Assembly: GCA_965219925.1 (NCBI GenBank)
Contig: OZ244795.1
Coordinates: 199,395 to 263,394, forward strand
Source: Dehalococcoidia bacterium
Lineage (GTDB): Bacteria; Chloroflexota; Dehalococcoidia; Lucifugimonadales; UBA3495
DNA: 64,000 nucleotides
Direction: 5' to 3'
Numbering within the stretch: the first letter of the stretch is position 1; every line of letters begins with the position of its first letter. Shown piece by piece: positions 11,336-59,549 of the stretch. The notes below the pieces were generated by a model. The model was not told the DNA's origin and searched no databases. It was given only the letters and a program-made list of their open reading frames with translations. Both the position numbers and the translations under genes were made by a program.

Positions 11336-13723
11336 TCATGATTCCTCCTGCTCCAACCTCTCCCCCATGGGCATCCGGTAGCCGACGCGAAGCTCGGTGA
11401 AGATGTACGTGGGGCTGCTTGCGTCGTCGCCCAGCTTGCGGCGGAGGTTCTTTACGGCGGTGCGCACCGGCCGCGAGTCGCCGGAGCTCCCCAGGCCCCA
11501 GACCCGTTGCAGCAGATGGTCATGGGTCAATACCAGACCGGCGTGGACCGATAGCTCGACCAGCAGCGAGTGCTCGATGGCGGTCAACCGGACCGGACGA
11601 CCGGCAACGCTCACCCTGCGTTCGGCGTAGTCGATGGTCAACTCGCCCAGCACATAGGGTTCCGTGGGTTCGGGCCGGGCGGTGGCCTCCCGCCGGCGCA
11701 GGGCCGCCCTGATCCTCGCCGCCAGCTCCGTGGGCGAGAAGGGCTTGACCACGTAATCGGCGGCCCCGGTGTCGAAGGCCCGGGCGATGACGTCGTCCTG
11801 GCCGTACACCGACAGGAAGATGACCGGCAGGTCGGCAATTTCGAAAATGCCTTTCATCAGCTCGATCCCGTCAGTCCCCGGCAGCATCAGGTCCAACAAG
11901 ACCAGGTGGGGCTTTTCCGCCTCTATGAGGCGGTACACCTCCTCCGAGTCGGCGGTCACAATCGGTGCATAGCCCAACTTGGAGAGGGCGTCGCGGACGT
12001 GCCTGAGCGCCTGCGGGTCGTCGTCCACGACGAGAATGCGCTGCTGTCCACGCTCCGACCGCCGCGAGGGGGCGGAGCGCCGGGCGGGTGCGGCTGCCGC
12101 ATCAGTCCCGGCTTCCATGACCACCGGAATCGTGAAGGTGAACCGCGCCCCCAGACCTTCTCCGTCGCTCTCGGCCCAGATGCGGCCCCCGTGGGCCTCC
12201 ACGATCCCCTTGCAGATGGCCAGGCCCAGGCCCGAACCCCCCAGACCGCGCCCCTGGTCCTCGTCGCCGGTCCGGGAGAACTTCCGGAACAGGTGGGGCA
12301 GGCGCTCGGCCGACACGCCCCGGCCCTCGTCTATGACGGAGACCGCGACGTGGAAGTCCTCCCGCACCGCGGTCACCCGGATGGAGGACGACTCGGGCGA
12401 GTGCCCGGCGGCGTTGGAGAGGAGGTTGCCCAGGACCTGGACGATGCGCCGCCGGTCCGCCATGACCCAGGGCAGGTCCGGCGGCAGGTCGATGCGGAGC
12501 TGGTTCCCGCCCCCTGCGTTCAGGAAGGCGTTCCTGGCCTCGTCCACCAGGACAGCCAGCTCCGCCGGTCCGGGAGCGACCGGCAGCGTGCCCGTCTCGA
12601 TCCGCGCCACGTCCAGCAGGTCGCTGATCAGGCCCCGCATCCGGCTGGCCTCCCGTTCGATGATCCGGTGGAACTGGCGCATCTCGGCGGGGTCCAGGTC
12701 GGGCTCGTCGTCCAGCAGGGTGGCTGCGGAGCCCCGTATGGAGGCCAGCGGCGTTTGCAGCTCGTGGCTGACCATGCCCAGGAACTCGGCCCGCAGCCGT
12801 TCCAGGTCCTCCAGGGGCGTCATGTCCTGTAGGGTCACGACCACGGACTGGACCTGACCCTCCTCCGAGTAGATGGGCGTGGCGTTGACCAGGGTGGTGA
12901 CGCTCCGCCCGTCGGGGATTTGAATGACGATCTCCTCGGCGCGCACCGTCTCACCGGCGCTGAGCGCCTGCGCCAGGGGGAACTCCTCCAGGGAAATCTC
13001 CCGCCCGTCGGCGCGCCGGAAGGTCAGCACGCCCAGGAGCTGCTCCAGAGGGCGGCCCGGCGTATGCAGGTCGTTGAAGATCCTTCTCGCCTCCCGGTTC
13101 AGCGACGCCAGGGCCCCGGTGGTGGCGTCGAACACCAGGACGCCCACCGGCGAGGTGTTGATCAGGGCCTCCAGGTCGGCCCTGGCCCGCTGTTCGTCCC
13201 GGTGCCGGCGGGCGTTGACCACGACCAGCGTCGCCTGGGAGGCGAACATCACCAACGTCTCCTCATCTTCCCGGGTGAACTCCCGGCCGCCTTCCTTCTC
13301 GGCCACGTAGAGATTGCCGACGTGCTCGCCCCGGTGACGCATCGGCGCTCCCAGCAGGGTCTTGATCGGCAGGTCGGGAAAGCCCAGCGACCGCATTTGG
13401 CTGGCGACGTCCCCGAATCTCAGGGAGCCCTGAATCGAGCTGAAGTACTCGAAGAGCGCCGGACCCTCCGGCAGGTCCAACATCCGCTGCTGCTCTTCGG
13501 GAGGCATACCGGAGGTGATGAACTCCAGCAGCTGGCCCGATTCGTCGAAGGTCGTAATCCCGCCGAAGCGGGCGTCGGTCAACGACCGGGCGCTGTCCAT
13601 GACCTCTTGCAGCACCGTGTCCGGGTCCAGGCTCTCACTGACGCGGAGGCTGGCCTCGCTCAACCGGGTCAGGCGCTCCCTTAGCGCCTCCATCTCCCGC
13701 CGGTGCTCGTCGGCTTCCTGCAT
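11336..13723 (-). CDS. fused cytoplasmic sensor kinase-response regulator: GAF-PAS-HisKA-HATPase-REC-OmpR/PhoB winged helix
   Basis: H-box SHELQTPLASIRG; G-boxes GRGLGGSGLGLAICKGIV; REC ILVVDDD..HLVLLDLMLPGTDG..KPF; C-terminal LTAIEHSLLVEL..VRTAVKNLRRKL..LRVGYRM. There is no TM segment. The start MQEADEH (ATG 13723) is preceded by GGAGGG, and the duplicated remnant at 19987-20049 supports it. Confidence 0.9.
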   Translation of the reverse strand: MQEADEHRREMEALRERLTRLSEASLRVSESLDPDTVLQEVMDSARSLTDARFGGITTFDESGQLLEFITSGMPPEEQQRMLDLPEGPALFEYFSSIQGSLRFGDVASQMRSLGFPDLPIKTLLGAPMRHRGEHVGNLYVAEKEGGREFTREDEETLVMFASQATLVVVNARRHRDEQRARADLEALINTSPVGVLVFDATTGALASLNREARRIFNDLHTPGRPLEQLLGVLTFRRADGREISLEEFPLAQALSAGETVRAEEIVIQIPDGRSVTTLVNATPIYSEEGQVQSVVVTLQDMTPLEDLERLRAEFLGMVSHELQTPLASIRGSAATLLDDEPDLDPAEMRQFHRIIEREASRMRGLISDLLDVARIETGTLPVAPGPAELAVLVDEARNAFLNAGGGNQLRIDLPPDLPWVMADRRRIVQVLGNLLSNAAGHSPESSSIRVTAVREDFHVAVSVIDEGRGVSAERLPHLFRKFSRTGDEDQGRGLGGSGLGLAICKGIVEAHGGRIWAESDGEGLGARFTFTIPVVMEAGTDAAAAPARRSAPSRRSERGQQRILVVDDDPQALRHVRDALSKLGYAPIVTADSEEVYRLIEAEKPHLVLLDLMLPGTDGIELMKGIFEIADLPVIFLSVYGQDDVIARAFDTGAADYVVKPFSPTELAARIRAALRRREATARPEPTEPYVLGELTIDYAERRVSVAGRPVRLTAIEHSLLVELSVHAGLVLTHDHLLQRVWGLGSSGDSRPVRTAVKNLRRKLGDDASSPTYIFTELRVGYRMPMGERLEQEES

Positions 13724-14026
13724 CTTCCCTCCCTGACCCGGACTGTGGACGCCACCCGGCTCCACGTCGTCAGGCGCCCGGCTGGATGCGGAGATCGGGC
13801 TTCGAGACGCCCTCGGGCAGCCGGTGTCAATTGTACCGGATCGGGCAAATACTCACAATAACATCACGGTAATAAGGGCTGATAATCACGTTGTACTCAC
13901 ATGAGTGGTTTACAATACTCACCGGGCCATAGCACAGTCCGCTTGGCCTGTATCTGCCCGTTAGAGGGGTTGTATTGGTCTGCCTTCCGCATAGGATACA
14001 AGTTGCAGTAGCGTCGGAGAGCGCAC
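13668..14026 (+). repeat. duplicated divergent-promoter module, copy 1 (includes the first 18 codons of the kinase gene)
   Basis: Aligns along its length with 19993..20344. Identity is highest over the kinase 5' end, the TCAC boxes, the -10 element and a ~100-nt leader. Confidence 0.85.
13851..13916 (+). promoter_or_regulatory. four phased TCAC direct repeats plus TACAAT -10 (Pho-box-like activator-dependent promoter)
   Basis: TCAC at 13853, 13864, 13886 and 13897 (spacing 11/22/11). TACAAT at 13911-13916 lies 10 bp after the last box. There is no convincing -35. Confidence 0.55.
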
Positions 14027-14282
14027 CGGCGGTATCCGCCGCCGTGAGGACGCGCCTCGACGAACGCAATCCTTCTACCCCCCGACGAATATCGTCACCG
14101 GATAGTCCCCCAGCCCCGGCTGTCCCCTTCCTTCGCACCGCCCACCTCCCCCGTAGTTCCGCTTGCCCGGAGCTCCCGTTCCTGAACGCGTACGGGCAGA
14201 CCGGGCGGTATCCCTTTGCCTTCCGGGCAACGTCCCTGCCCGCCGTCCAGACTTTGCAACTGCCTGAAGTGAGGTTAGCATC

Positions 14283-17200
14283 GTGAAACGCCAACTGTCC
14301 TTTGCCGTTCTTGCCGCCCTGGGAGCCTTCGCGCTCTTCGTTTTCGCCGGCGTCCCATTGCCCTACCAGGCCCAGGCCCAAGCGTCGCCGTCGGTGGCGG
14401 TCAGCCTCTCCTCCGACACCGTGGAGGAGGGATCGGCCATCGCCGTCACCATGAGCTTCAGCGGCCTGGAGTCCGACGCCGACACCGCAACCAAGGACTA
14501 CGTCTTCCGGGCCGACGTGGTGGACTCGGAGGACGGGGACGCCAACGGGTGCGAGGACCAGGCCGGAGGCTACGGCCTGGGCGTGGACCGCTACATGTGG
14601 CAGGTGGACGAAGACCCGGAAGTCCGCACCGGGAGCGTCTCCGCCGACTGCCCGGCCGGGGACTACACCCTTCGGGCCAGCATAGCGTCGCCGGAGAATG
14701 TGGAGCTGGCCTCGGCGAGAGCAAGCTTTACGGTGGCGGCGCCAGCCCCGGAACCTACGCCTGAGCCCACGCCAGAACCCACGCCGGAGCCTACGCCGGA
14801 GCCGACACCGGAACCCACGCCTGAGCCCACGCCGGACCAGGAAGACCCCGACCCGTCGGTGGCCCTGATCCTCTCCCCGGACGGCTTCGCGCCGTGGAAC
14901 ACCGAAATCAGCGTCACCATGCTCTTCGGCGCTCTGAAGGCCGACTCCGACCGGGACACCACCGACTACGTATTCCGGGCCGACGTGAAGGACTCGTGGA
15001 ACCGGGACGCCGACGCCTGCGAGGGCGGCGGCCTGGGCATCGACCGCTACATGTACCAGGTGGACCAGGACCCGGAGACCCGCAGCGGGACCATCGCCGC
15101 CGGCTGCCCCATCGGCGGCTACACCATCGAGGCCAGCATCGCCACCGAGGCCGGTGGCGTGGTGGCCTCCGCCAGCGCCGAGTTCTCGATATTCGGGCCC
15201 AGCATCGGCCTGGCCATTCCTGTCGCCGAGCAGGGGGCCGGGGGTGTCCTGACCCTGAGCTTCGGGTTTCTGGCCCCGGACGCCGACGCCGACACCACCG
15301 ACTACATCTTCCGGGCCGACGTGGTGAACGCCGACGCCTGCGAGGGCGACGGCCTGGGGGTGGACCGCCACATCCACCAGGTGGACGAGGACCCGGAGAC
15401 CCACACCGGGACCATCTCCGCCGACTGCCCGGCGGGCGACTACACCCTGGAAGCGAGCATATCGTCGCCCGACGGAGTGGAGCTGGCCTCGGCGAGCGCG
15501 AGCTTCACCATCGCGCCGCCGGTAGAAGACGACGACGACCCGCCCGTGTCCAGGCAGCAGCAGGCCATGCCGCAGGATTTCTTCCTGGACTCCGACAATA
15601 GCAGCCCGGGGGGCATCTGGTCCGACGGCACGACGATGTGGGTGACTGACTCGGACGAGAACAACAAGCTCTACGCCTACGCCCTGGCCGACGGGACGCG
15701 CCAGGACGGCACCGGCAGCACGACCAATAGGGAGTTCGCCCTGCACGCCGACAACGGCTATCCCACAGGCATCTGGTCCGACGGCACGACGATGTGGGTG
15801 ACGGACGGTAGCGACTACAAGCTCTACGCCTACGCCCTGGCCGACGGGACGCGCCAGGACGGCACCGACGGCACCACCAGCAAGGAGTTCGCCCTGCACA
15901 GCGACAACGGCAATCCCCTGGGCATCTGGTCCAACGGCTCCACCATCTGGGTGGCCGACTATGGCGACGACAAGCTCTACGCCTACGCCCTGGCCGACGG
16001 GACACGCCAGGACGGCACCGGCGGCACCACCAGCAAGGAGTTCGCCCTGCACGCCGACAACGGCATTCCCACAGGCATCTGGTCGGACGGGGCGACGATC
16101 TGGGTGGCCGACAGCGACGACGTCAAGCTCTACGCCTACGCCCTGGCCGACGGGATACGCCAGGACGGGGGCGGCGGCACAGCCAACCGGGAGTTCGCCC
16201 TGCACAGCGACAATAGCGCCGCCTTCAGCATCTGGTCCGACGGCACCACGATGTGGGTGAACGAAATCTCTGACGGCAAGGTCTACACCTACGCCATGCC
16301 GACTCCGGTGCTGACCGGGCTGACCGTCAGCCCGGGGACCCTGGATCCCGCCTTCAACAGCGACACCCTGGAGTACGCCGTCTCCGACGTGCCCCACGCC
16401 AGCGGCCGGATCACCGTCACGGCCACCGCGGAGAGCGGGGCCGACGTCTCCTATGAGGACGGCTCCGGCAACACGCTCACCGACGTTGACTCCGGCACAA
16501 CCGGCGACCAGTTCGACCTGGTCGTGGGCGAGAACGTCATCGAGGTCAAGGTGACCAAAGGCAGCCTCAGCCGGACCTACGCGCTGGCGGTCAGCCGCGA
16601 GGCCGCCGTGCCGACGAGTTTCGACCTGCACCCCGACAATAGCAACGCCAGGGGCATCTGGTCCGACGGCACCACGATGTGGGTGGCGGACTCCGCATAT
16701 TTTGAGGGCCGCCCTTATTCTGAGGAACGTGCCAGCAAACTCTACGCCTACGCGCTGGCCGACGGGACGCGCCAGGACGGGACCGGCGGCACCGTCAACA
16801 AGGAGTTCGACCTGGACAGCAACAGCATCTATCCCATCGGCATCTGGTCCGACTATAGAACGATGTGGGTGGGGGACTACTACGGCGGCCGGGTCTATGC
16901 CTACGCGCTGGGCGACGGAACCCGCCAGGACGGCATCGCCAACGAGGACAAGGACAAGGAGATAGACCCGGGACCTCACGCCGACAACGGCGCTGTCTCG
17001 GGCATCTGGTCCAACGGCGTGACGATGTGGGTGGCCGACCCCGACGACGACAAGATCTACGCCTACTCGTTGGCCGACGGAAGGCGCCAGGACGGAGCCC
17101 CCCACGCCTACGTTATCGACGGCATTCGCTACCGGTTCGACGGGAGGCTCTATGACGAGAATGCCGTCAACGAGGAGTTCGACCTGCACCGTGACAACGC

Positions 17201-18668
17201 CAGTCCCATCGGCATCTCGTCCATCGACGAGACGATATTGGTGCTGGACGACGAAGACGCCAGGCTCTACGCCTACGCCCGGGCCGACGGGACGCGCCAG
17301 GACGGCACCGGCGGCGCCGACGACTGGGAGTTCGACCTGAACGACGACAACGGCAACCCCGTGGGAATCTGGTCCAGCAACGAGAAGATGTGGGTGCTGG
17401 ACGGCGACGACGGCAAGGTTTACTCCTACACCTTCCCGATCCCCCCCATGCTGACCGGGCTGAGCGTCAGCCCGGGGACCCTGACGCCGGCCTTCGACAG
17501 CAAGACCCGGGATTACGCCGTCCCCGACGTGCCCCACGCCAGCGACCGGATCACCGTCACGGCCACCGCGGAGGGGCGCGCCCGCGTGTCCTACGAGGAC
17601 GGCTCGGGCAACTCCCTGACCGACGCCGACGCCGACGCCGCCGGCGACCAGTTCGACCTGGAGGTGGGCGAGAACGTCATCAGGATCAGGGTGACCGAAG
17701 GCGAGGTCAGCCGGACCTACGCGCTGGCGGTCAGCCGCGCCTATCACCCGTCCTTGTCTCCGCCGTACCGGTTCACCTGGAGTGATGGGGTCCACTACCA
17801 CAATTGCCAGCTTGGGCCGGAAGATAATCCGTATTGGGAGTTCTCTGTATCTACGGATTCTTCAACAACCCGTTTGGTGCAGCCGAGTGATTTAAGAAGA
17901 AGCGGACATGACGATTGTTCGGCAACGGTGCGGATCCCTCTAAGCTACTTCCCATTGGGTTCGTGCGACCTCAACGCGGACAATTTGTGCATTACGGTCC
18001 GTCACACCGAGTTGTTCGTGGACCATAATACTGGACGTTATACCGCCTCGGTTTCCCGTCCCGTTGTTGTCGAGTTGATTCCGGCTTCCACCGACGCCAC
18101 GCTGCGCGCCCTGGCACTCAGTGGGGTTGACTTCGGCGCCTTCGCGTCAACCACCACGGAGTACGCCGCCAGCGTCGCCCACGCCGTCGCCGAAACCACG
18201 GTGACTCCGGCGGTCAGCGACTACAGGGCTGCCTACGCCGTCAAACTGGGCGGAGTGGTCGACGCCGACGGGACCGTCCCCCTGGCCGAGGGCGAGAACT
18301 TCATCGCCGTGGAGGTCACGGCCGAGGACGGGGAGACGGCTCAGACCTACAGCGTGACGGTCACCCGCGCCGCGCCTCTCGCCGCGCCGGGCCGGCCGAC
18401 CGGGGTGGTGCCGGAGCCGGGGAAGGTGACCCTGGACTGGGACGACGTGGACGGGGCCACCGGCTACCAGGTGGGCCTGTGGCGGCAACCCAATCTGGTG
18501 CCCCTGCCCAGCGATGCCATGCCTGGGGTGACGGTGCAAATGAACGGTTCCGGCGCCACGCTTACCGGCCTGCCTGCCGAATGGTCGCACTACTGGCTCA
18601 CGGTCCGGGCCAGCAACGACGGCGGCGCATCCGGCTGGTCGGATTGGCTCACCCTGGAAAACGGCTGA
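14283..18668 (+). CDS. giant secreted repeat protein (1461 aa): 3x novel two-Cys domain, PEPT linker, ~43-aa propeller-like repeats, cadherin-like domains, C-terminal FN3
   Basis: GTG start with GAGG upstream. Signal peptide AALGAFALFVFAGV..AQAQA. Three ~110-aa DYxFRADV..CE..DRYM..CPxGxYT modules (nt 14385-15518). Repeated IWSDGTTMWV.D...KLYAYALADGTRQDG units. LTGLTVSPGTLDPAFNSDTLEYAV-type cadherin-like beta-sandwich modules. The tail KVTLDWDDVDGATGYQV..VRASNDGG is FN3. Confidence 0.9.
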   Translation: MKRQLSFAVLAALGAFALFVFAGVPLPYQAQAQASPSVAVSLSSDTVEEGSAIAVTMSFSGLESDADTATKDYVFRADVVDSEDGDANGCEDQAGGYGLGVDRYMWQVDEDPEVRTGSVSADCPAGDYTLRASIASPENVELASARASFTVAAPAPEPTPEPTPEPTPEPTPEPTPEPTPEPTPDQEDPDPSVALILSPDGFAPWNTEISVTMLFGALKADSDRDTTDYVFRADVKDSWNRDADACEGGGLGIDRYMYQVDQDPETRSGTIAAGCPIGGYTIEASIATEAGGVVASASAEFSIFGPSIGLAIPVAEQGAGGVLTLSFGFLAPDADADTTDYIFRADVVNADACEGDGLGVDRHIHQVDEDPETHTGTISADCPAGDYTLEASISSPDGVELASASASFTIAPPVEDDDDPPVSRQQQAMPQDFFLDSDNSSPGGIWSDGTTMWVTDSDENNKLYAYALADGTRQDGTGSTTNREFALHADNGYPTGIWSDGTTMWVTDGSDYKLYAYALADGTRQDGTDGTTSKEFALHSDNGNPLGIWSNGSTIWVADYGDDKLYAYALADGTRQDGTGGTTSKEFALHADNGIPTGIWSDGATIWVADSDDVKLYAYALADGIRQDGGGGTANREFALHSDNSAAFSIWSDGTTMWVNEISDGKVYTYAMPTPVLTGLTVSPGTLDPAFNSDTLEYAVSDVPHASGRITVTATAESGADVSYEDGSGNTLTDVDSGTTGDQFDLVVGENVIEVKVTKGSLSRTYALAVSREAAVPTSFDLHPDNSNARGIWSDGTTMWVADSAYFEGRPYSEERASKLYAYALADGTRQDGTGGTVNKEFDLDSNSIYPIGIWSDYRTMWVGDYYGGRVYAYALGDGTRQDGIANEDKDKEIDPGPHADNGAVSGIWSNGVTMWVADPDDDKIYAYSLADGRRQDGAPHAYVIDGIRYRFDGRLYDENAVNEEFDLHRDNASPIGISSIDETILVLDDEDARLYAYARADGTRQDGTGGADDWEFDLNDDNGNPVGIWSSNEKMWVLDGDDGKVYSYTFPIPPMLTGLSVSPGTLTPAFDSKTRDYAVPDVPHASDRITVTATAEGRARVSYEDGSGNSLTDADADAAGDQFDLEVGENVIRIRVTEGEVSRTYALAVSRAYHPSLSPPYRFTWSDGVHYHNCQLGPEDNPYWEFSVSTDSSTTRLVQPSDLRRSGHDDCSATVRIPLSYFPLGSCDLNADNLCITVRHTELFVDHNTGRYTASVSRPVVVELIPASTDATLRALALSGVDFGAFASTTTEYAASVAHAVAETTVTPAVSDYRAAYAVKLGGVVDADGTVPLAEGENFIAVEVTAEDGETAQTYSVTVTRAAPLAAPGRPTGVVPEPGKVTLDWDDVDGATGYQVGLWRQPNLVPLPSDAMPGVTVQMNGSGATLTGLPAEWSHYWLTVRASNDGGASGWSDWLTLENG

Positions 18669-19277
18669 GCGCCATACGCTGGAGGGGCGGGGCCAGGGTG
18701 GACGCCGCGCCGCCTGCCCCGAGGATGCCGGCGGCGCGGTTGGGCCAGCCGACCGGCAGCATCGTCGCTGGGCCCTGACCTGCCCGCCTGGTTAGGCCTG
18801 GCCGGGCAACACGGCCGGGCCGCCAGCGCGGCTGGCGCCGGCGGTTAAATCCGAAGGAACATCCGGGTTGCGGACCCCGCTGCGCCAGGACGGAAAGCAA
18901 GGCCAGCGAGGGCGCAGAACCGGTCGTCAGCGCCGCCGGCTAAGGCAGCTTCGCCTCTCTGGCGCATGGTAATTCAGGACAACAAGAAAGCCCGCGTACC
19001 TGGACGAGCGGGGGAGGACACCGCCCGTAGCGGTGTCCTCCCCTTTGCCTTGGTCCTGGCGGCCCGCGCCGGCCGGTCCCTCCTCCCGCCTCCGTTCCAC
19101 GCTGAGCGCCCACTCGAACCCGGACAGAGACGAAGGCTTGGTCTCGCCGTTGCGTCCCTGGGGCTGGGCCGGTTCCCCGGCTATGAACCCGGCCCGGGAG
19201 AACACCGACTGCTGAGGTTGGTGGATTCGGCGCAGCCGAAGCCATCGCCGGCCGGGTTCCGGGGCAGCCACCCAGGG

Positions 19278-19673
19278 TTACGCCGTGGCAGCCTGCCCCC
19301 CGGCGCCGCCCTGGACCCTGGTCAGGACCCCCAGGATTATCCACGCCGGCAGCGAGGCCACCAGGGGGTAGGCGACGACGCCGATGGGACCGAAAAGCCC
19401 TCCGATGATTACACCCCAGGCGGACACCAGTCCCAGCACGACGGCACAACCGTAGGCCAGGATGCGGGACAGGACCTGGGGGCGGCGGTGCATCAGGCGC
19501 ACCGCCAGGGTCAGTGAAATCCCAACCGGCCATGCCAGCCCGAACAACCACAAGACGTCAGCCGCGCCAGGGCCGGTCCCGAATCCGTCAATGCCGAACC
19601 GGAGGAAGGAGATAACCAGCACCAGGGCCGGCAGCCAGAGGGAGAATAGGATAGTACCGATGGCGCTCTTCAT
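19278..19673 (-). CDS. small polytopic membrane protein (131 aa)
   Basis: AGGAGG lies 8 nt upstream of ATG 19673 (MKSAIGTILFSLWLPALVLV). Four hydrophobic segments. Confidence 0.65.
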   Translation of the reverse strand: MKSAIGTILFSLWLPALVLVISFLRFGIDGFGTGPGAADVLWLFGLAWPVGISLTLAVRLMHRRPQVLSRILAYGCAVVLGLVSAWGVIIGGLFGPIGVVAYPLVASLPAWIILGVLTRVQGGAGGQAATA

Positions 19674-19821
19674 GTTCATCACCTCCTGACGTGTGGAATA
19701 AGCCCTTCCCCAGCGCCGGGGAGAATAAGAATACCTTGCGCATGGGGTACTACGTTGGCCGGCCGCCCGCCGGATTGGGGCAGTCCTGCCAAGCCGGAAA
19801 GGGCGGAGGCAATTCCGGGCA

Positions 19822-19850
19822 ACAAAAAAAGCCCGCACACATGGGCGGGC
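19822..19850 (-). terminator. intrinsic terminator (minus strand)
   Basis: The minus strand reads GCCCGC-CCATGTGT-GCGGGC followed by TTTTTTT. Related short copies are at 18967-19012 and 30075-30117. Confidence 0.5.
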
Positions 19851-19986
19851 AGGGTGCGCCAGGAAGCGCGTAGGCTGAAAGTTCCAGCCGTGGAACCCGG
19901 CCAGGAGTGGGCCGGTGGCCAGGGAAGCAGGCGTTAAGGCCAGAGGCGGAACCGTGTCTGAAACCTTCCCGGCAATGCGGCGGAGG

Positions 19987-20049
19987 TCACCTGTCAAGCC
20001 GCTCCCTTAGCGCCTCCATCTCCCGCCGGTGCTTGTCGGCTTCCTGCAT
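19987..20049 (-). pseudogene. 20-codon remnant of the kinase-regulator 5' end
   Basis: MQEADKHRREMEALRERLDR-stop versus MQEADEHRREMEALRERLTR at 13723. Confidence 0.85.
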
Positions 20050-20344
20050 TTCTCCACCTCAATTGGGCTGTGGCAGACTCGAGGTTCGCTGTCTTCAGGA
20101 ACCGGCTGGATGCAGATCGGACTTCGAGGCGCCTTCGGCCAGCCGGTGTCAATTGTACCAGTCTGGCGAGATACTCACACTACATCACGGAAATAGAGGT
20201 TGATAATCACATTAAACTCACATAGATAGTTTACAATACCCGCTGGGCTATAGCGCAGTCCGCATGGTCTATGCCCGCCTGTTAGAGGGGTTGCATGTCT
20301 AGCCTTGTGCATGGAATACAAGTTGCAGTAGCGTCGGAGAACGC
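19993..20344 (+). repeat. duplicated divergent-promoter module, copy 2
   Basis: See 13668..14026. Confidence 0.85.
20173..20237 (+). promoter_or_regulatory. four phased TCAC direct repeats plus TACAAT -10, second copy
   Basis: TCAC at 20175, 20185, 20207 and 20218 (spacing 10/22/11). TACAAT at 20232-20237. Confidence 0.55.
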
Positions 20345-20372
20345 TTGGCTGCTCCGGTTATCGCTCGTTGTC

Positions 20373-23300
20373 ATGGCCGCCGTCGTCGTCGTGCCGGTCA
20401 TGCTCTTCGGCGGCTCGCCCGCCGCCGCGCAGCAGGCAGTCCCGGACCAGCCGGAGGGACTGACCGGCAAACTGCTGGACTACCTCGTCGTCGGGCTGGA
20501 CTGGGACGACGCGGAAGGCGCGACCTCGTACCAGGCGCAGTACTGGGATACGACGGGAGACAGCCCGGCCTGGGCGGAGGCGCCCGAGGCCGAATACGAT
20601 GGCTCCTCAGCCGTGATAAGCGGTCTGCCGGACCAGCGCTACTACTACTTTCAGGTTCGCGCCGTCAACGACGCCGGGGCGTCGAAGTGGTCGGACTTCG
20701 TCTTACTGGCGGGCCCCGACACGCCGACAGACCCATCTACTCCGACACCGGAACCTACGCCGGAACCTACGCCCGAACCTACCCCGGAGCCTACTCCCGA
20801 ACCCACGCCGAAGCCGGGTATCTGTGACCGCACGTATCAGGTTCGTGAAGCAATCGAGAGTAATGTGTTCAGGAATCTGATGAATTCCAGGGGTAGCAGA
20901 CCGGGATGCCAAGACATTACCGACGCTCAACTGGCGCGTATCGACAACCTTTATCTTCCGGGTGTTGGGCACCTTAAGATCGGTGATTTGGCTGGTCTCA
21001 CCGGAGTCAAGTATCTCCACATGGACCATACCGGACTGAGCTCCCTGCCGCCGGGCGTCTTTGATGGACTCGGCAGTTTGGAACGGTTGCACCTAAATCA
21101 CAACGCGCTGAGCTCCCTGCCGCCGGGCATCTTTGATGGACTCGGCAGTTTGGAACGGTTGGAACTGAACAACAACGCGCTGAGCTCGCTGCCGCCGGGC
21201 ATCTTTGATGGACTCAGCAGGTTGTATTGGTTGTACTTGGGCAATAACGCGCTGAGCTCGCTGCCGCCGGGCATCTTTGATGGACTCGGCAGTTTGGAAC
21301 GGTTGGAACTGTACAATAACAGGCTGAGCTCGCTGCCGCCGGGCGTCTTTGATGGACTCGGCAGTTTGGAAGACTTGTATTTGAGGAATAACCAAATAAG
21401 CTCATTGCCGCCGGGCGTCTTTGATGAACTTGGCAGTTTGGAACGGTTGTACTTGAGCAATAGCGGGCTGAGCTCCCTGCCGCCGGGCGTCTTTGATGAA
21501 CTTGGCAGTTTGCGATCGTTGGATCTGTCCAATAACCGACTTAGCTCGCTGCCGCCGGGCGTCTTTGATGAACTTGGCAGTTTGTATTGGTTGCAGTTGA
21601 GTGATAACCAAATAAGCCCGCTGCCGCCGGGCGTCTTTGATGAGCTTGGCAGTTTGGACCGGTTGTACTTGGGCAATAACGGACTGAGCTCGCTGCCGCC
21701 GGGCATCTTTGATGAACTTGGCAGTTTGTATTGGTTGTACTTGAGCAATAACGGACTGAGCTCCCTGCCGCCGGGCATCTTTGATGAACTTGGCGGTTTG
21801 GGAGAGTTGTACTTGAAAAATAACAGACTGAGCTCCCTGTCGCCGGGCGTCTTTGATGGACTTGGCAGATTGAGAGTGTTGAATTTGCGCAATAACAGAC
21901 TAAGCTCCCTGCCGCCGGGCATCTTTGATGAACTTGGCAGTTTGCCTTGGTTGTACTTGAGCAATAACGGACTGAGCTCCCTGCCGCCGGGCATCTTTGA
22001 TGAACTTGGCAGTTTGCGTTGGTTGGTTCTGTCCCATAACCAATTGAGCTCCCTGCCGCCTCGCCTGCTCCCCCGGCATGTAGAGTGGCCCACGGATTAT
22101 TTTGGTGTTGTGTCCTCCGGTACTGTGTACCTGGTTGGCAACCGGCTGACTGAGCTGCCGGATGCGCTTTTCGAGGTCGAAAACCTGAGGTTGAAAACCT
22201 TGCATCTGGAGGACAATCCTGGCAGCCCATTCACCTTCAGCATGGAAGCCGAGGCGATAAGCCAGAGCGTTGACGATGCGGGCATCCACACCGCGCGGGT
22301 GCGCTACAAGGTAGCCCAGGGGGCGCCGGCAATGATGACAGCAGCGCTGGAGGTCAGCGGCGGCGCGGCATCCACCGCATCGGTAACCATAGGGTCAGGG
22401 AGCGTCTACAGCGATGAGATAGTGGTGACGCAGAGCGAAGCGGGTCAGCCAGTTACGCTCACATTGCAGAAAGTGTCGCCCCATATCCCATCACCATTTA
22501 CTCCTGGCTCTATCCTTAATACATGGCCTGAATTTGATTATATTGGATTCTTTGGGGTCGGGTTCGCCGCGGGCGCCCCTCTCACCCTCTTTGCCGATTC
22601 ATCGCTGCCTCCGGTTGAACCGGAGGCGCCCAAGGGCATCTGCGGGCGGACGCCGCAGGTGCGGGACGCGATTTTAGGCAAGCTGCCCGACGTCAGCGAC
22701 TGCGCGGCGGTGACGGATGCCGACCTGAACGGCATCACCGGGCGTCTGGACCTGAACGTACAGGAGACCGGGGAGGAGATGACGGCGCTGCAGCCGGGAG
22801 ACTTCGCGGGTCTCACGAACCTGCAAATTCTGTACCTGACCGACAACTCCCTGGAGACGCTGCCCGCAGACATCTTCGAAGGCCTGGCCGCCCTGACGAC
22901 GATCCAGCTGGAGAACAACGGGCTAAAGGAACTGCCCGAGGACATCTTCGACGGTCTCGGCAGTCTGACGGGGCTGCGCCTGCAGAACAACAAGCTGAGC
23001 ACGCTGCCCGAGGAGGCCTTCGACGGTCTGACGAGCCTGGAGGGGCTGTTCCTGACGCGGAACCAGCTGAGCGAGCTGCCCGAGGACGTCTTCGACGGTC
23101 TGACCGGTCTGAAGACGCTCTACCTGGATGGCAACGAACTGAGCGCGCTGCCCGAGGAGGTCTTCGACGGTCTGACCAGCTTGAGGGAGTTGCGCCTGAA
23201 CAGCAACTCGCTGAGCGGACTGCCGGCCGGTGTGTTCGAGGGTCTCGCCAACCTGAGGAGCCTGGTGCTGGAGCACAACGACCTGGAGACGCTGCCCGCC

Positions 23301-24977
23301 GGTGTGTTCGCAGGACTCACCGGGCTGGAAAAGCTGCTTTTGGGCGGCAAGGAGGCGCCCTTCACGCTCACGGCGGAGTTGGAGCGCCGGGGCGGCGACG
23401 CCGTGGCGGTCAAGGTGGTGGAGGGAGCGCCGTTTGCGATGGCGGTCAAGCTGTCGGCGGAGGGCGGCACGCTGTCCAGCGAGACGGTTACGGTTGAAGC
23501 GGGGAGCCTGTCCAGCGAAGAGATTAGCGTTGCGCCGGCTGCTGAAGGGGGGACGGAGGTCACCGTCAGGGTGGAATCGGCGGAGTTCACCGGGGTGGTG
23601 GTGTCAGTCGGGGGAGTCGAGGGCTATAGCGGCATCCAAACCGGCCTGGGGCAGCCGCTGACGCTGACCTTCTCCGCGCCGGATTCCAAAGACGGCTCAA
23701 CGATAAAGGGCCCGGGGCCGACGGTGGCGATTGCCCTGTCCCCGTCCGGCCCGGTGGAGCCGGGCACTGCCATCGGCGTCACCATGAGGTTCAGCGGCCT
23801 GGAGTCCGACTCGGACACCGGCACCACCGATTACATCTTCCGGGCCGACGTGAAGGACTCGGAGAACGGGGACGCCGACGCCTGCGAGGACCAGGCCAAT
23901 GGCTACGGTTTGGGCGTGGGGCGGTACATGTGGAAGGTGGACGAGGACCCGGAGGTTCGCACCGGGACCATTTCCGGCGACTGCCCGGCCGGGGCCTACA
24001 CCCTGTGGGCCAGCGTCTCCTCCCCCGACAACGTGGAGTTGGCCTCGGCCAGCGCGAGCTTCTCGGTCCGAGAACCGGAGACGCCGCTCTCCAAAGACGC
24101 CGCCCTGGACGGGCTGACGCTGAGCGGGGTGGACATCGGAACCTTCGACCCGGACACCAGCGGGTACGCCGCCGACGTGGACAATGACGTGACGGAAACC
24201 ACGGTCACTGCTACGGTGAACGGCGGAGGCGCGAGCTACCTGATCAAGCTGGACGGGGTGGCCGACGCTGACGGGGTAATCCCCTTGGCCGTGGGCAGCA
24301 ACGTCATCACCATCCAGGTCACGGCGGAGGATGGGGAGACGACCAGGACCTACACCGTCACGGTGACCAGGGCCGCGCCGCCGCTTTCAAGCGACGCCAC
24401 CCTGAGCGGGCTGGAACTGAGCGGGGTGGACATCGGAGGCTTCGATCCGGCAACCACCGACTACACCGCCAGCGTTGCCAACGACGTAACGGAAACTACG
24501 GTGACGGCGGCGGTGAACGAAGACGGGGCGACCTATCTGGTCAAGCTGGACGGTGTTGCCGATAGCGGCGGGACCGTCTCCCTGGCCGAGGGAAGCAACG
24601 TCATCGCCATCGAGGTCACCGCCGAGGACGGAGAGACGGCGAAGACCTACACCGTAACCGTCACCAGGGCCGAGCCGCCACTCTCCAAAGACGCCACCCT
24701 GAGCGGGCTGACGCTGAGCGGCGCGCCCTTCGCCTTCGACCAGGCCATCGAGAGCTACGAGGTCAGCGTCGGCCACGAGGTGGAGCAGACCACCATAACG
24801 GCGGAGACCAACGACGAAGCCGCCAGCTATGAAGTGGCGCTGGTGCTTTCCGCGAGCTATGAAGACGGAACCGTCGGCCTGGCCGTGGGCGCCAACCTCA
24901 TCGTTCTCCTGGTGACGGCTGCGGATGGGGAGACGACGAAGACCTACACCGTCACTGTCGCCAGGGCCGAGGCCTGA
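20373..24977 (+). CDS. giant secreted LRR protein (~1534 aa): FN3, PEPT linker, two LRR blocks, novel two-Cys domain, 4x cadherin-like
   Basis: ORF 20295..24977. The first 26 codons lie in the conserved leader, so the start is placed at MAAVVVVPVMLFGGSPAAAQQ (signal peptide). It has 14 near-identical 24-aa LSSLPPGxFDxLGSLxxLxLxNNx repeats, and a second block capped by GICGRTPQVRDAILGKLPDVSDC. The two-Cys domain is at nt ~23718-24070. Four LSGVDIG.FDP.T..Y modules follow. Confidence 0.9.
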   Translation: MAAVVVVPVMLFGGSPAAAQQAVPDQPEGLTGKLLDYLVVGLDWDDAEGATSYQAQYWDTTGDSPAWAEAPEAEYDGSSAVISGLPDQRYYYFQVRAVNDAGASKWSDFVLLAGPDTPTDPSTPTPEPTPEPTPEPTPEPTPEPTPKPGICDRTYQVREAIESNVFRNLMNSRGSRPGCQDITDAQLARIDNLYLPGVGHLKIGDLAGLTGVKYLHMDHTGLSSLPPGVFDGLGSLERLHLNHNALSSLPPGIFDGLGSLERLELNNNALSSLPPGIFDGLSRLYWLYLGNNALSSLPPGIFDGLGSLERLELYNNRLSSLPPGVFDGLGSLEDLYLRNNQISSLPPGVFDELGSLERLYLSNSGLSSLPPGVFDELGSLRSLDLSNNRLSSLPPGVFDELGSLYWLQLSDNQISPLPPGVFDELGSLDRLYLGNNGLSSLPPGIFDELGSLYWLYLSNNGLSSLPPGIFDELGGLGELYLKNNRLSSLSPGVFDGLGRLRVLNLRNNRLSSLPPGIFDELGSLPWLYLSNNGLSSLPPGIFDELGSLRWLVLSHNQLSSLPPRLLPRHVEWPTDYFGVVSSGTVYLVGNRLTELPDALFEVENLRLKTLHLEDNPGSPFTFSMEAEAISQSVDDAGIHTARVRYKVAQGAPAMMTAALEVSGGAASTASVTIGSGSVYSDEIVVTQSEAGQPVTLTLQKVSPHIPSPFTPGSILNTWPEFDYIGFFGVGFAAGAPLTLFADSSLPPVEPEAPKGICGRTPQVRDAILGKLPDVSDCAAVTDADLNGITGRLDLNVQETGEEMTALQPGDFAGLTNLQILYLTDNSLETLPADIFEGLAALTTIQLENNGLKELPEDIFDGLGSLTGLRLQNNKLSTLPEEAFDGLTSLEGLFLTRNQLSELPEDVFDGLTGLKTLYLDGNELSALPEEVFDGLTSLRELRLNSNSLSGLPAGVFEGLANLRSLVLEHNDLETLPAGVFAGLTGLEKLLLGGKEAPFTLTAELERRGGDAVAVKVVEGAPFAMAVKLSAEGGTLSSETVTVEAGSLSSEEISVAPAAEGGTEVTVRVESAEFTGVVVSVGGVEGYSGIQTGLGQPLTLTFSAPDSKDGSTIKGPGPTVAIALSPSGPVEPGTAIGVTMRFSGLESDSDTGTTDYIFRADVKDSENGDADACEDQANGYGLGVGRYMWKVDEDPEVRTGTISGDCPAGAYTLWASVSSPDNVELASASASFSVREPETPLSKDAALDGLTLSGVDIGTFDPDTSGYAADVDNDVTETTVTATVNGGGASYLIKLDGVADADGVIPLAVGSNVITIQVTAEDGETTRTYTVTVTRAAPPLSSDATLSGLELSGVDIGGFDPATTDYTASVANDVTETTVTAAVNEDGATYLVKLDGVADSGGTVSLAEGSNVIAIEVTAEDGETAKTYTVTVTRAEPPLSKDATLSGLTLSGAPFAFDQAIESYEVSVGHEVEQTTITAETNDEAASYEVALVLSASYEDGTVGLAVGANLIVLLVTAADGETTKTYTVTVARAEA
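21036..22043 (+). repeat. 14 tandem 72-bp coding repeats (LRR units) with high nucleotide identity
   Basis: Exact 72-bp period. Long identical runs such as GAGCTCCCTGCCGCCGGGCATCTTTGATGAACTTGGCAGTTTG recur. Confidence 0.9.
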
Positions 24978-25274: not shown

Positions 25275-28200
25275 ATGACAGTATCCCCTCTTCGTATCCG
25301 CTGGCTCGCAGTCGTGGCAGTTCTGGCCAGCGCCGTCGTTCTAAGCGCCTGTAGCGACGATCCGGCTCCCACGCCGGAGCCAACGGCTGCTCCGACCGCC
25401 GCGCCAACGGACACCCCCACACCAGAGCCAACGGCTACTCCGACTGCCACTCAAACGGACATGCCTGCTCCCGCCGCAGTTGATAGGGCCGCGCTGGTGG
25501 CGCTCTACGAAGCGACGGATGGAGCCAACTGGACGAGCAACGACAACTGGCTGAGCGACAGGCCAATCGGAGAATGGCACGGCGTAATCGCTGACCTCAG
25601 CGGGCGCGTCACCGAGCTGTCCCTCTCCGAGAACGAATTGAGCGGTCAAATACCGGCGGAGTTGGGCAGCCTCTCCAACCTGGAATCCCTGTGGCTCGGG
25701 TATAACCAGTTAAGCGGTGATATACCGGCGGAGTTGGGCAGCCTCGCCAACCTGGGATGGCTGTGGCTCGAGAATAATCAGTTGAGCGGTGAGATACCGG
25801 CGGAGCTGGGCAACCTTGCCAACCTGGTAGAGCTGAATTTCTCTGTTAACCAGTTGAGCGGAAAGATACCGGCGGAACTGGGCAACCTCGCCAGCCTGGA
25901 ATGGCTATGGCTCTGGGATAACCAGTTGAGCGGAGAGATACCGGTGGGGCTAGGCAACCTCGCCAACTTGGAAAGGTTGTGGCTCAATGATAACCAGTTG
26001 AGCGGCGAGATACCGGCGGAACTGGGCAACCTCACCACCCTGGGATCACTGGACCTCGATGGAAACCAGTTGAGCGGCGAGATACCTGGATATCTGGGCA
26101 GCCTCGCCAACCTGTACACGCTCGCCCTGGGGGATAACCAGTTGAGCGGCGAGATGCCGGAGGAACTGGGCAGCCTAGCCAACCTGCAATCGCTGTACCT
26201 CGCCGGTAACCAGCTGGGCGGGTGCGTGCCGGGCAGCTTACGAGACCAGTTGGATATGGACTACTCCGACCTGGGAGGGCTGCCGTTCTGCGGCGCCGCA
26301 TCCGAGCCCGCAGTCGTCGAGACGGACCGGGCGGCGCTGGTGGCGCTCTACGAAGCGACGAACGGAGCCAACTGGACGAGCAACGACAACTGGCTGAGCG
26401 ACAGGCCAATCGGAGAATGGCACGGCGTAATCGCTGACCTCAGCGGGCGCGTCGCGGAGCTATACCTCGACTTTAACCAGTTGGGCGGAGAGATACCGAC
26501 GGAGGTGGGCAACCTCACCAACCTGGAATGGCTGGGACTTGGCAGGAACCAGTTGAGCGGAGAGATACCGGGGGAGTTGGGCAGCCTCGTCAACCTTCAA
26601 TACCTGCTCCTCTCTGAGAACCGGTTGAGCGGCGAGATACCGACGGAACTGGGCAACCTCTCCAACCTGAAATGGCTGGGATTTGCCAGAAACCAGTTGA
26701 GCGGGGAGATACCGGAGGAGTTGGGCAACCTCGTCAACCTGCAAGAGCTGTTCCTCTCTGAGAACCAGTTGAGCGGCGAGATACCGGCCGAGTTGGGCAA
26801 CCTTCCAAACCTACTAGTGCTGTATCTCTCCGGCAACCGGTTGACCAGGTGCCTACCCGATGGGTTGGGAGAGATACAGGAAAGTGACCTCAACATCATG
26901 TCCATTCGTCCGCCCTTGTGCGGAACAACCCCGGCGAGCATGATCGCGGCGGGCGGCACAATCGCAGTCCTTCAGTCTCTTGAGTCACTGTCGGACGCTC
27001 ATCGGAGAGCTGGCACAGAGTTTGAGTGGTCGCAGGTGTCGGGTCCGCCCGTTGAACTCCTCGATGCGAATGCTGAGTATGCTCGGTTCACGGCCCCGGT
27101 GGTCGTTGAAGACACCATCTTGGTGTTTGTGCTGAAAGCCGAATATCAGAACGACGTCACGGTGATCGATACTGTGCCGATACGCGTCGTTCCCGTGAGA
27201 ACGGAGAGGGTGTTGGCCGCTTTGGTGGACTTTCTTGACGTGGACCCTGAAGAAAGACCCTTTACCAGGGAGGATATCGTCAAGCTCCTTGAGGATAATG
27301 ACGATTCTTTGAGCAATTTCATTGCTCTGACCTCGCGCAATTTGGTGAGCGTTGACTTTGACGTCCTGGACTGGATCACTGTCGACAAGGACAGGACGGG
27401 CTATCCACCGGATGGTGGTACGGTCGTAGAGGACGTCGTCAGCAGGATGTCCGACTTTGCCGACTTGAGTCAGTATGACAAGGTGATGCCGTTGATCTTT
27501 CCTCTCGACCAAGGGTATCCCGGGTGTCAAGCCTACCTGGATAAGGTCCACTGGGACACGCCAAACGGCCGCTTCGAGCTAGGCGCCTCGTGGCTGAGCG
27601 GATATGACATGGGTTGTGTAAACAAAGGCAGGATAGCACACGAGTTTGGACACACATTCGGGTTCGTGCATTCGTACTTGATTGACTGCGCTAAAGAGCC
27701 GCCCTTGCCGGCGAGCATGACTGACCCCACTGACAAGAACAGCTCCTGCTTCTCTCACGGATACGACGGAGATACATATGTGGGGAAAGAGGACGCTGGG
27801 ATTGCCGCCAACATGGACTTTGACATGCTGGGGGGCGACCATCGATACGAGAGCTTCTTTCCGGTTCACTTCCACGCAACATGGCAGGATCGAGCCGGAT
27901 GGTTGGCCGAAGCCCAGGTCGTTGCTGCTAACAGCGCCGGCGAGTACTCGCTCACCGCTTTGGAATCCCTTACTCCCACACCGAAGGCTGTGAGGATATT
28001 CTTGGGAACCGATCACAAGGGTAACTCCCTATACTATCTGATCCAACATCGTGAGTTCAGCCCGTGGTCCATGGGTTCGCCGGACTCCGGGCAACAGGTG
28101 GAGTCTTCGTGCCAAGCCGATGTGAGGCTTGAAGCCTCCAACATATTTGAGCGTGGGTTATTCAATACTTACTTTTTCAGTGGGTATATCGACGGCGTGA

Positions 28201-28652
28201 GCGTGGATTCCATATCACGCCCTGGTAAGCCGTTATGGGACCCTTACCGTGGCATTTGTATCGAAATACTTGATTGCATAGATACTCCGATAGGTGAGGT
28301 TGTCAGGATGCAAGTCAACTTTTCCAAACTGGATATTGACGCGCCGGTAGTCGCCATTTTCGGTACTGCCGGAAAAGCGACGATAAAGATGACAAACAAC
28401 GGCAGCGTACCGATTGACGTTGGCTCTGCCTCGATCGGGGGCAGGCATCCAACCGCATTTGTCGTTGATTCTGATGAATGCAGTGATTCCACAATGAAAT
28501 CGAAAGCGTCGTGCGAGATCATCCTGTCGCATGTCCCAACCGACACTGAGGACGATGAACCCAACAATCACGGTGTGTTGAAGATCCCGAACAATGACGC
28601 GTTGGCGCCCGAGATGACGGTGAGTCTATTTGCGGCGAATGCAAACCGATGA
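25275..28652 (+). CDS. lipoprotein with two plant-type LRR modules, Ig/PKD-like region and HExxH metalloprotease-like domain (1125 aa)
   Basis: AAGGAG SD. Lipobox VVLSAC. Pro/Thr linker. Twice the cap ALVALYEATxGANWTSNDNWLSDRPIGEWHGV followed by 24-aa LSGEIPAELGNLxNLxxLxLxxNQ repeats. GRIAHEFGHTFGFVHSY at nt ~27630. Confidence 0.85.
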   Translation: MTVSPLRIRWLAVVAVLASAVVLSACSDDPAPTPEPTAAPTAAPTDTPTPEPTATPTATQTDMPAPAAVDRAALVALYEATDGANWTSNDNWLSDRPIGEWHGVIADLSGRVTELSLSENELSGQIPAELGSLSNLESLWLGYNQLSGDIPAELGSLANLGWLWLENNQLSGEIPAELGNLANLVELNFSVNQLSGKIPAELGNLASLEWLWLWDNQLSGEIPVGLGNLANLERLWLNDNQLSGEIPAELGNLTTLGSLDLDGNQLSGEIPGYLGSLANLYTLALGDNQLSGEMPEELGSLANLQSLYLAGNQLGGCVPGSLRDQLDMDYSDLGGLPFCGAASEPAVVETDRAALVALYEATNGANWTSNDNWLSDRPIGEWHGVIADLSGRVAELYLDFNQLGGEIPTEVGNLTNLEWLGLGRNQLSGEIPGELGSLVNLQYLLLSENRLSGEIPTELGNLSNLKWLGFARNQLSGEIPEELGNLVNLQELFLSENQLSGEIPAELGNLPNLLVLYLSGNRLTRCLPDGLGEIQESDLNIMSIRPPLCGTTPASMIAAGGTIAVLQSLESLSDAHRRAGTEFEWSQVSGPPVELLDANAEYARFTAPVVVEDTILVFVLKAEYQNDVTVIDTVPIRVVPVRTERVLAALVDFLDVDPEERPFTREDIVKLLEDNDDSLSNFIALTSRNLVSVDFDVLDWITVDKDRTGYPPDGGTVVEDVVSRMSDFADLSQYDKVMPLIFPLDQGYPGCQAYLDKVHWDTPNGRFELGASWLSGYDMGCVNKGRIAHEFGHTFGFVHSYLIDCAKEPPLPASMTDPTDKNSSCFSHGYDGDTYVGKEDAGIAANMDFDMLGGDHRYESFFPVHFHATWQDRAGWLAEAQVVAANSAGEYSLTALESLTPTPKAVRIFLGTDHKGNSLYYLIQHREFSPWSMGSPDSGQQVESSCQADVRLEASNIFERGLFNTYFFSGYIDGVSVDSISRPGKPLWDPYRGICIEILDCIDTPIGEVVRMQVNFSKLDIDAPVVAIFGTAGKATIKMTNNGSVPIDVGSASIGGRHPTAFVVDSDECSDSTMKSKASCEIILSHVPTDTEDDEPNNHGVLKIPNNDALAPEMTVSLFAANANR

Positions 28653-33967: not shown

Positions 33968-34043
33968 GGTGCTGGCAGCTCCTGGTCTCTGGCGGCTTTC
34001 GGGGGCGGTTGCTTGCGGCCTGAGGCGGATCCAGCCGACGGTT

Positions 34044-37171: not shown

Positions 37172-37347
37172 TTCTGTTCTCCTGTCCTTTGTTTTGGAAT
37201 GGCGCTGAATTCAAGTCGGCGTCTGGAACCGGCCTGAGGATTTGTCGTTTGGGTTTGTCGAAGTTGGACGGACCCGGTTTGATCTGTACCCCGCAGTGGT
37301 CGGGTCGGTTGGGGCGACCAGGGAAGGCAGGACTTGGTGACCTCCTG

Positions 37348-59473: not shown

Positions 59474-59549
59474 GCGTTTCTGATCCGTAGCGGTAGAGCG
59501 GCAGATTGCGACGGATGCGTTCTTTACGCACTGTATGTTGATGTGATTT

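Follow-up and report, generated by a model that had tools for sequence, protein, structure and literature searches.

Large secreted multi-domain proteins of the "eukaryotic-like" type are leading candidates for host recognition and tolerance in sponge symbionts, and they are usually catalogued through known Pfam repeats only. Bacterial surface and secreted proteins also make use of small extracellular modules with immunoglobulin-like (Ig-like) or E-set beta-sandwich folds, such as those of GbpA (2xwx), the fn3-like domain of RbmA (4be6), Wzt (8dky, 8dl0), the MG domain of alpha2-macroglobulin (2p9r), and PKD (4xed). Here, we describe a domain, named X, which occurs six times in a 64,000-nt stretch of DNA (the window, meaning that whole stretch) from a Dehalococcoidia bacterium (GenBank assembly GCA_965219925.1, contig OZ244795.1, positions 199,395 to 263,394 of the forward strand). 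We are highly confident that all six segments belong to one unnamed, extracellular, shuffled Ig-like family that is narrow in taxonomic spread, horizontally mobile, and preferentially N-terminal.

Like the Ig-like and E-set modules, X is predicted to be an all-beta, two-sheet sandwich of ~100–130 aa, extracellular and a building block of secreted or surface proteins with several domains. It differs from them in sharing only 9–18% identity and no sequence-profile relationship, and in having a signature of its own, i.e., an invariant Cys pair, a CE-GxGxG-R loop, VDEDPE, and CPxGxYT. With the "eukaryotic-like" proteins it shares its company, as X is a module of large secreted multi-domain proteins with leucine-rich repeats (LRR), Cadherin-like, fn3, Calx-beta, VWA, or beta-propeller parts, which is the architecture of that category. 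Cadherin-like PF12733, LRR, fn3, Calx-beta, and cadherin modules are reported to be enriched in sponge symbionts, and Poriferisodalaceae and one genus of Aldehydirespiratoraceae are described as clades of such symbionts (PMC11706023). X is found in the same proteins as such modules, in lineages that include these published clades (matches include Ca. Poriferisodalis and Ca. Aldehydirespirator), and with the same cross-taxon spread, while none of the Pfam models for those modules detects it. Because we know of no eukaryotic counterpart of X, the term "eukaryotic-like" does not demonstrably apply to X itself.

The X domain and its copies

The earlier note on this DNA had proposed six occurrences of an unrecognised two-cysteine domain in four genes. 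When located by translation of open reading frames (ORFs) and by scanning all six frames with a hidden Markov model (HMM) built from the copies, all six proved real, with coordinates within ~10 nt of those proposed (Table 1), and the six-frame scan returned no seventh full copy in the window. The copies are 106–121 aa long and 36–73% identical in pairwise comparison, with identities to the first copy of gene A (A1) of 53, 61, 73, 55, and 38% for A2, A3, B1, C1, and D1, respectively. A1 and D1, the most divergent pair, are matched by BLASTP at E = 1e-21 and 36% identity, a result independent of the model built from the copies. The proposed consensus motifs DY[VI]FRADV, CE..GxGLG..RYM, VDEDPE, and CPxGxYT were all found in the copies. 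Gene C additionally contains, at residues ~390–420 (32927–33019, minus strand), a cysteine-less Ig-like segment (...PAGEYTVRVTVASADDDNVAEATATLTV) with a partial X match that covers the last hairpin only (E = 1.5e-4) and with weak CopC and Y_Y_Y matches; this segment may be a distant, loop-less relative of X.

Conservation was counted over 323 distinct X copies, which come from the window, from related loci, and from proteins in databases. Every copy has Cys56 and Gly92, and 322 have Cys89, while 237 of 239 database copies have exactly two cysteines, such that the two cysteines are effectively as invariant as had been claimed. Nearly invariant as well are L28, D31, D33, D38, Y39, F41, R42, A43, D44, V45, E57, G62, G64, G66, R69, V74, D75, P78, E79, R81, Y94, and F115. 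Conservation is thus concentrated in the cysteines, a Gly-rich loop, and charged residues, with many of the invariant positions in an irregular segment (residues 48–78) between strands 4 and 6; outside the motif positions, X evolves fast, as judged from the ratio of nonsynonymous to synonymous substitution rates (dN/dS) of the window copies. Two coupled insertion sites, at residues 48–52 and 58–61, set long forms apart from short ones. A divergent subfamily (P0177, P0183, and P0075) has lost VDEDPE and keeps the two cysteines, CxGxGxG, and CPxGxY, and an X domain from Nitrosopumilus keeps TTDYIFRADV, CEGxGMG, VDENPE, and CPPGEY at 35–46% overall identity.

The beta-sandwich suggested by the earlier note is borne out by structure prediction. 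AlphaFold2, run on copy A1 with a 48-sequence alignment, gave an all-beta, eight-stranded model with a mean predicted local distance difference test (pLDDT) of 96.8 and a predicted TM-score (pTM) of 0.86. Along strand 4, Y39, F41, A43, and V45 alternate with R42 and D44, which would put the latter two opposite the hydrophobic core, judging from the sequence and the DSSP string. Foldseek searches of the PDB with the model returned generic Ig-like, fn3-like, and PKD-like sandwiches only, at TM-scores on the query (TMq) of 0.5–0.67, the low identities given above, and E no better than 3e-4; these included GbpA (E = 3e-4, TMq 0.62), the MG domain of alpha2-macroglobulin, the carbohydrate-binding domain of Wzt (TMq 0.64–0.67), RbmA, NPC2, and PKD. 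In the viral structure library BFVD, nothing better than generic Ig-like matches was found. The model thus places X in the Ig-like / E-set beta-sandwich fold class, which is a structural class rather than a homologous family.

No named family was found to fit X, as the earlier note had proposed. Searches of Pfam-A (2025) and NCBIfam (2026) with the six window copies singly, with 38 diverse copies, and with whole carrier proteins gave no match to X above any gathering score, with sub-threshold noise from ML, CopC, NAR2, DUF4165, Y_Y_Y, and PKD. HMMs for Cadherin-like PF12733, fn3, Calx-beta, PKD, and Big matched the neighbouring domains of the carriers and never the X segments. A sequence search of the PDB with two X profiles yielded nothing significant (one match, ykfF, at E = 1.6) and no ML protein, and a literature search found context papers only, with no description specific to the domain or its accessions. 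Given the generic Ig-like neighbours and the lack of a family match, X is best described as a new sequence family with a common fold.

Placement, spread, and exchange of X

Architectures were taken from an exhaustive search, with a profile, of 1.84 billion cluster representatives. It yielded 443 X representatives at a cut-off of E <= 1e-3, 172 of them at E <= 1e-30, with as many as seven X copies in one protein; a domain-sized profile search gave only proteins of <=219 aa. Of the 127 X proteins that are 300 aa or longer, 74 have their first X beginning ahead of residue 70 and six have X at the end; elsewhere it is internal, tandem, or alternates with Cadherin-like domains. Where it leads, the head junction is stereotyped, with a signal peptide ending in ...A[HQ]AQ, then [ASD]SPS, then strand 1, and A[HQ]AQxSPS recurs in ~40 homologues among those listed. 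The extracellular location claimed for X is accordingly well in keeping with sequence features of the carriers, which have predicted Sec-type signal peptides, with X beginning 2–4 residues past the AxA site; the signal peptides of X-headed proteins are of AxA type and not lipoboxes. None of the 127 carriers has a C-terminal transmembrane segment or an LPXTG motif, and domain scans of X carriers gave no match to SLH. Over 50 X proteins, partner domains were Cadherin-like PF12733 (40), fn3 (11), LRR (6), and cadherin PF00028 (6). Among 114 pairs of successive X copies, the gap exceeds 60 aa in 62, where it usually encloses a Cadherin-like domain, and in 18 pairs the copies abut.

The heads of X proteins can be far more alike than the bodies they carry. 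Proteins P0141 and P0154 are 100% identical in the signal peptide and 94% in X, vs 26% over the next 400 aa, and the same pattern of near-identical heads (signal peptide 94–100%, X 90–94%) on unrelated next 400 aa (16–26%) is seen for P0148/P0154 and P0097/P0201. These sequence comparisons suggest recombination at the head-body junction.

To survey X-bearing taxa, as the earlier note had called for, we searched 185,579 GTDB species, each represented by a single genome, for the motif R[YH][MI]x[QRK]VD[EQ][DN]P, a type of scan that would miss divergent members. The search found 131 X copies at 49 loci in 28 genomes, labelled as 20 Dehalococcoidia, three other Chloroflexota, four Acidimicrobiia (two Ca. 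Aldehydirespirator, one Ca. Poriferisodalis, and one Acidimicrobiales), and one Nitrosopumilus. All 28 are long-read metagenome-assembled genomes (MAGs) from one accession series, and the window itself is 97–98% identical to another Dehalococcoidia MAG (OZ244805). Motif-based scans, which again miss divergent members, found no relatives in IMG/VR, JGI metagenome contigs (two motifs), PLSDB plasmids, or INPHARED phages.

Within this narrow range, X is exchanged across deep taxonomic boundaries. At the protein level, Acidimicrobiia copies are up to 96% identical to those of Dehalococcoidia and only 59% to those of other Acidimicrobiia genomes, and segments of 3.0–3.2 kb that do not extend beyond the X gene are 88–90% identical in DNA between these two phyla, which implies horizontal transfer. 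The Nitrosopumilus X gene encodes a signal peptide, X, a PDPTPE linker similar to the (PEPT)n linker of gene A, and an unknown domain, and adjoins a split DDE_3 transposase; because its G+C content (GC) is host-like (0.40), it is not contamination. Overall, the family spreads by duplication, recombination, and horizontal transfer among Dehalococcoidia, other Chloroflexota, Acidimicrobiia, and a Nitrosopumilus archaeon. Separately, the window X copies have a GC of 0.64–0.72, near that of the Acidimicrobiia loci (0.66–0.68), which may hint at the direction of transfer or merely follow from amino-acid composition.

Candidate functions

We tentatively favour, as a possibility short of an even chance, that X serves as a ligand-binding module at the tip of secreted, adhesin-like proteins. 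Most of the invariants (C56, E57, G62, G64, G66, R69, D75, P78, and E79) would lie in the long stretch that links strands 4 and 6, which is probably tied to the strand 6–7 hairpin by a putative C56–C89 disulfide. Together with a conserved acidic loop (D31-x-D33...D38) and with R42 and D44, which would face outward, this stretch could form a fixed, possibly Ca2+-stabilised surface. Such a tip would recognise something common to the shared habitat, whether host matrix, glycan, or host cell surface, while the variable bodies would add other specificities. Several structural neighbours of X belong to proteins that mediate adhesion or bind carbohydrates (GbpA, the Wzt carbohydrate-binding domain, and RbmA, at TMq 0.62–0.67). 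Taken as a whole, i.e., the X family together with a binding-tip mechanism, the favoured statement appears to us about evenly balanced between right and wrong. A more specific version, which we consider rather unlikely, would have X act as a holobiont-specific "ticket" for host interaction, with unrelated symbionts (Chloroflexota, Actinomycetota, and Thaumarchaeota) binding the same sponge factor and a cassette of signal peptide and X being actively recombined onto LRR, propeller, or cadherin-like bodies and exchanged between phyla. If so, this would be a diversified repertoire for secreted adhesion or immune evasion, comparable to variable surface-protein families with a conserved 5' head.

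The main rival, which we judge somewhat unlikely, is that X is a passive spacer or stalk module like the fn3 or bacterial Ig domains of adhesins, holding LRR, propeller, or cadherin-like parts apart or off the cell, with residues conserved for folding only (disulfide, glycine turns, and internal salt bridges). The fold is indeed generic and without a specific structural neighbour, and several further observations weigh against a binding tip: X forms tandem arrays of up to seven copies, some abutting without linker (18 of the 114 pairs), and takes internal positions, both typical of passive stalk modules, and is interleaved with Cadherin-like domains; dN/dS among the window copies is high (0.35–1.0, at dS of 0.4–1.0), such that much of their similarity derives from recent duplication and transfer and not from strong constraint; and the conserved charges could simply form salt bridges inside the domain that hold the long loop. 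To these we add that the ligand, the Ca2+ binding, and the C56–C89 disulfide are things we infer, and that a sponge origin of most X-bearing MAGs is read from taxon names and one paper rather than from sample metadata. A spacer, however, would have no reason to favour the mature N-terminus as strongly as X does (74/127), and the conserved positions include surface-type charges (R42 and D44, which point outward from strand 4, and E57, R69, D75, E79, and R81) within motifs that persist in an archaeon at 35–46% identity.

Two other readings fit less well than a binding tip. The earlier note had raised the idea of X as a common anchoring unit, which would retain the secreted proteins on the surface of their producer or cross-link them into a matrix through X–X contacts, as in an RbmA-like scaffold. 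That 0/127 carriers have a C-terminal transmembrane segment or LPXTG is in its favour, as are the place of X next to the signal peptide, which would make X membrane-proximal if the peptide stayed uncleaved, and the presence of GbpA and the biofilm scaffold RbmA among the structural neighbours. We found no positive evidence for it and consider it improbable: the junction between signal peptide and X resembles a normal AxA signal-peptidase site, X is also internal and C-terminal in carriers, and the likeness to GbpA and RbmA is weak (E ~1e-3 to 3e-4, 9–16% identity). Moreover, X occurs in Dehalococcoidia, Acidimicrobiia, and Nitrosopumilus, whose envelopes are fundamentally different, which makes a single self-envelope ligand unlikely and argues against an anchor to the cell's own envelope. 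More improbable still is that X belongs, as a very distant member, to the eukaryotic family of ML (MD-2-related lipid-recognition) domains (PF02221; NPC2, Der p 2, and MD-2) and binds lipid or sterol between its two sheets. X resembles ML in size, in its Ig-like sandwich fold, and in recurrent weak profile matches, PF02221 being the most recurrent sub-threshold Pfam match (6/38 diverse copies, best E = 4e-4) and reaching whole-protein sums of ~24 bits in multi-copy proteins, and NPC2 structures are among the Foldseek matches (TMq 0.46–0.57, E ~2e-3). Those sums include no individually significant stretch, though, and no single copy reaches the gathering score (22.7 bits); hhalign of a 38-sequence X profile against human NPC2, with the sequence verified against the PDB, gave a probability of 0.1%; the PDB profile search returned no ML protein; and NPC2 ranks 21st or lower by Foldseek, behind the non-ML sandwiches GbpA, Wzt, and RbmA at TMq 0.62–0.67. 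The multi-disulfide pattern of the ML domain also appears to differ from the single Cys pair (56, 89) of X. We therefore reject ML membership on the gathering score and the hhalign result.

Carrier genes, their surroundings, and outlook

The X genes of the window sit in an island (14–41 kb) of secreted LRR, fn3, Calx, VWA, and Cadherin-like proteins, the carriers among which are summarised in Table 1. X had been thought to be the only module common to their otherwise different architectures; this does not hold, since an fn3-like module is common to genes A and B (40% identity, E = 5e-18), and Cadherin-like PF12733 is shared by A and B, LRR by B and E, and Calx-beta by C and E. The start of gene C is probably an internal ATG of the ORF at 31973–34180.

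Table 1 Carrier genes, X copies, and associated features in the window
Feature	Position	Strand	Description
Gene A	14283–18668	+	1461 aa: signal peptide, three X, 5-blade propeller, Cadherin-like, second 5-blade propeller, Cadherin-like, further sequence, Cadherin-like, fn3-like C-terminus
Gene A signal peptide	14283–14384	+	GTG start; ends ...AQAQA|SPS
X copy A1	14385–14744	+	120 aa, long form; starts the mature gene A protein, right behind the signal peptide
(PEPT)n linker	14745–14849	+	Pro/Glu/Thr-rich; between A1 and A2
X copy A2	14850–15200	+	117 aa; after the (PEPT)n linker; gene A
X copy A3	15195–15521	+	109 aa, short form without both insertions; abuts A2, no linker; gene A
Gene B	20295–24977	+	1560 aa: signal peptide, fn3-like, LRR, LRR, X, three Cadherin-like
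X copy B1	23715–24077	+	121 aa; internal to gene B, preceded by the second LRR block and the domain next to it and followed by the three Cadherin-like domains
Gene C	31973–33967	-	Signal peptide, X, Calx-beta, Ig-like domain, three fn3
X copy C1	33434–33796	-	121 aa; directly after the gene C signal peptide
X copy D1	34047–34364	-	106 aa; first strand lost; out of frame with gene E; remnant C-terminal domain of E
Deletion scar between E and D1	about 34330–34375	-	Frame-breaking deletion; ~8–9 codons (~25 nt) short vs P0047, first X strand included
Gene E	34310–37171	-	953 aa as now read: signal peptide, LRR, VWA, LRR, Calx-beta, LRR; formerly ran on into D1

The sixth copy, D1, had been read as a stranded ORF (34044–34400) and thus as a gene of its own, which it is not. 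Its frame is open from 34616 to 34047 (minus strand), overlapping the terminal part of gene E (stop codon at 34310), and a relative (P0047) runs in frame from an E-like C-terminus into X (...GLTPVPGPDLTIPAAAATKTTVTLSETSPITEGTKVTATMSF...). On this sequence comparison, D1 is what was the C-terminal X domain of gene E, the LRR/VWA/Calx gene upstream, now decaying and severed from it by a frame-breaking deletion. D1 also carries Y94F, at a position that is Tyr in 318/323 copies. A locus in the closest related genome, the independently assembled OZ244805 (L045; 96.8% DNA identity), has the identical E/D1 frame structure and no indel, such that the break was inherited and a sequencing error at the junction is unlikely. 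A programmed frameshift was also considered: no canonical slippery heptamer was seen, and as the intact relative shows that ~25 nt are missing, a deletion explains the junction better. Genes of the E type are decaying in several genomes, with a deletion shared by two related genomes (L045 9097–9757) and an IS66 insertion splitting the gene of a third (L053 6837–7865). Many database X proteins are fragments of <=212 aa with out-of-frame tails, which are either widespread pseudogenes or indel errors of long-read assemblies.

Two further modules of the carriers stand out. Gene A has two blocks of five ~51-aa repeats (GIWSDGTTMWV...KLYAYxLADGTRQDG; 15555–16367 and 16590–17510, plus strand) without a Pfam match, which form a second unrecognised repeat family. 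An AlphaFold2 model of a repeat block, built on a 2-sequence alignment only (pLDDT 66, pTM 0.66), shows five four-strand blades, and its Foldseek matches are beta-propellers, the top ones (TM 0.64–0.65) being five-bladed glutaminyl cyclases. An unannotated module of ~100 aa follows the LRR blocks immediately before X in gene B (residues ~1010–1130, ~nt 23320–23700) and at the C-terminus of gene E (~nt 34400–34640), with the motifs ...GAPF.M.V.L... / ...GAPFPITVNL..., and the same arrangement is found in P0053. In its position, this module resembles the Ig-like region that follows the LRRs of internalins.

Elsewhere in the island, a 1125-aa protein (25275–28652, plus strand) has a signal of lipoprotein type (...VVLSAC) and two LRR blocks, both of which follow a conserved N-terminal cap, together with a PKD-like domain and a motif (HEFGH) like that of zinc proteases; its Reprolysin_5 match is weak (E = 0.006). 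A 1324-aa ORF antisense to gene A (13827–17801, minus strand) is taken as a shadow ORF of this GC-rich gene because all homology evidence lies on the plus strand. Divergent from gene A lies a hybrid GAF-PAS-HisKA-HATPase-REC-Trans_reg_C (OmpR) regulator (11336–13765, minus strand), copies of which, at >=84% aa identity, stand upstream of X genes at 18 of 50 loci, every one of them labelled Dehalococcoidia or Chloroflexota. At three loci (L003, L025, and L036), fragments of its 5' part are present, which implies that duplications of X-gene heads took the upstream region along. GC is 0.64–0.69 in the secreted-protein island (12000–20000 and 32000–40000) vs 0.52–0.61 in the rest of the window. 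The flanks hold a HIRAN-domain helicase, a DDE transposase, a GmrSD restriction enzyme, and a DUF1156 + DUF499/HEPN pair (42–2240, 46044–47078, 52402–54309, and 56217–62960), and look like a defence and mobile-element neighbourhood.

Together, these results add an uncatalogued module to the secreted multi-domain proteins of such symbionts (131 copies at 49 loci in 28 genomes), mostly at the exposed N-terminus, that has crossed phylum and domain boundaries within one community type. In itself, X is a new family with a common fold, useful and unsurprising to a specialist. An X profile can improve the annotation of such genomes and serve as a marker for transfer within the holobiont, and X is nominated, as a small domain predicted to fold well (pLDDT 96.8), for work on binding and localisation.

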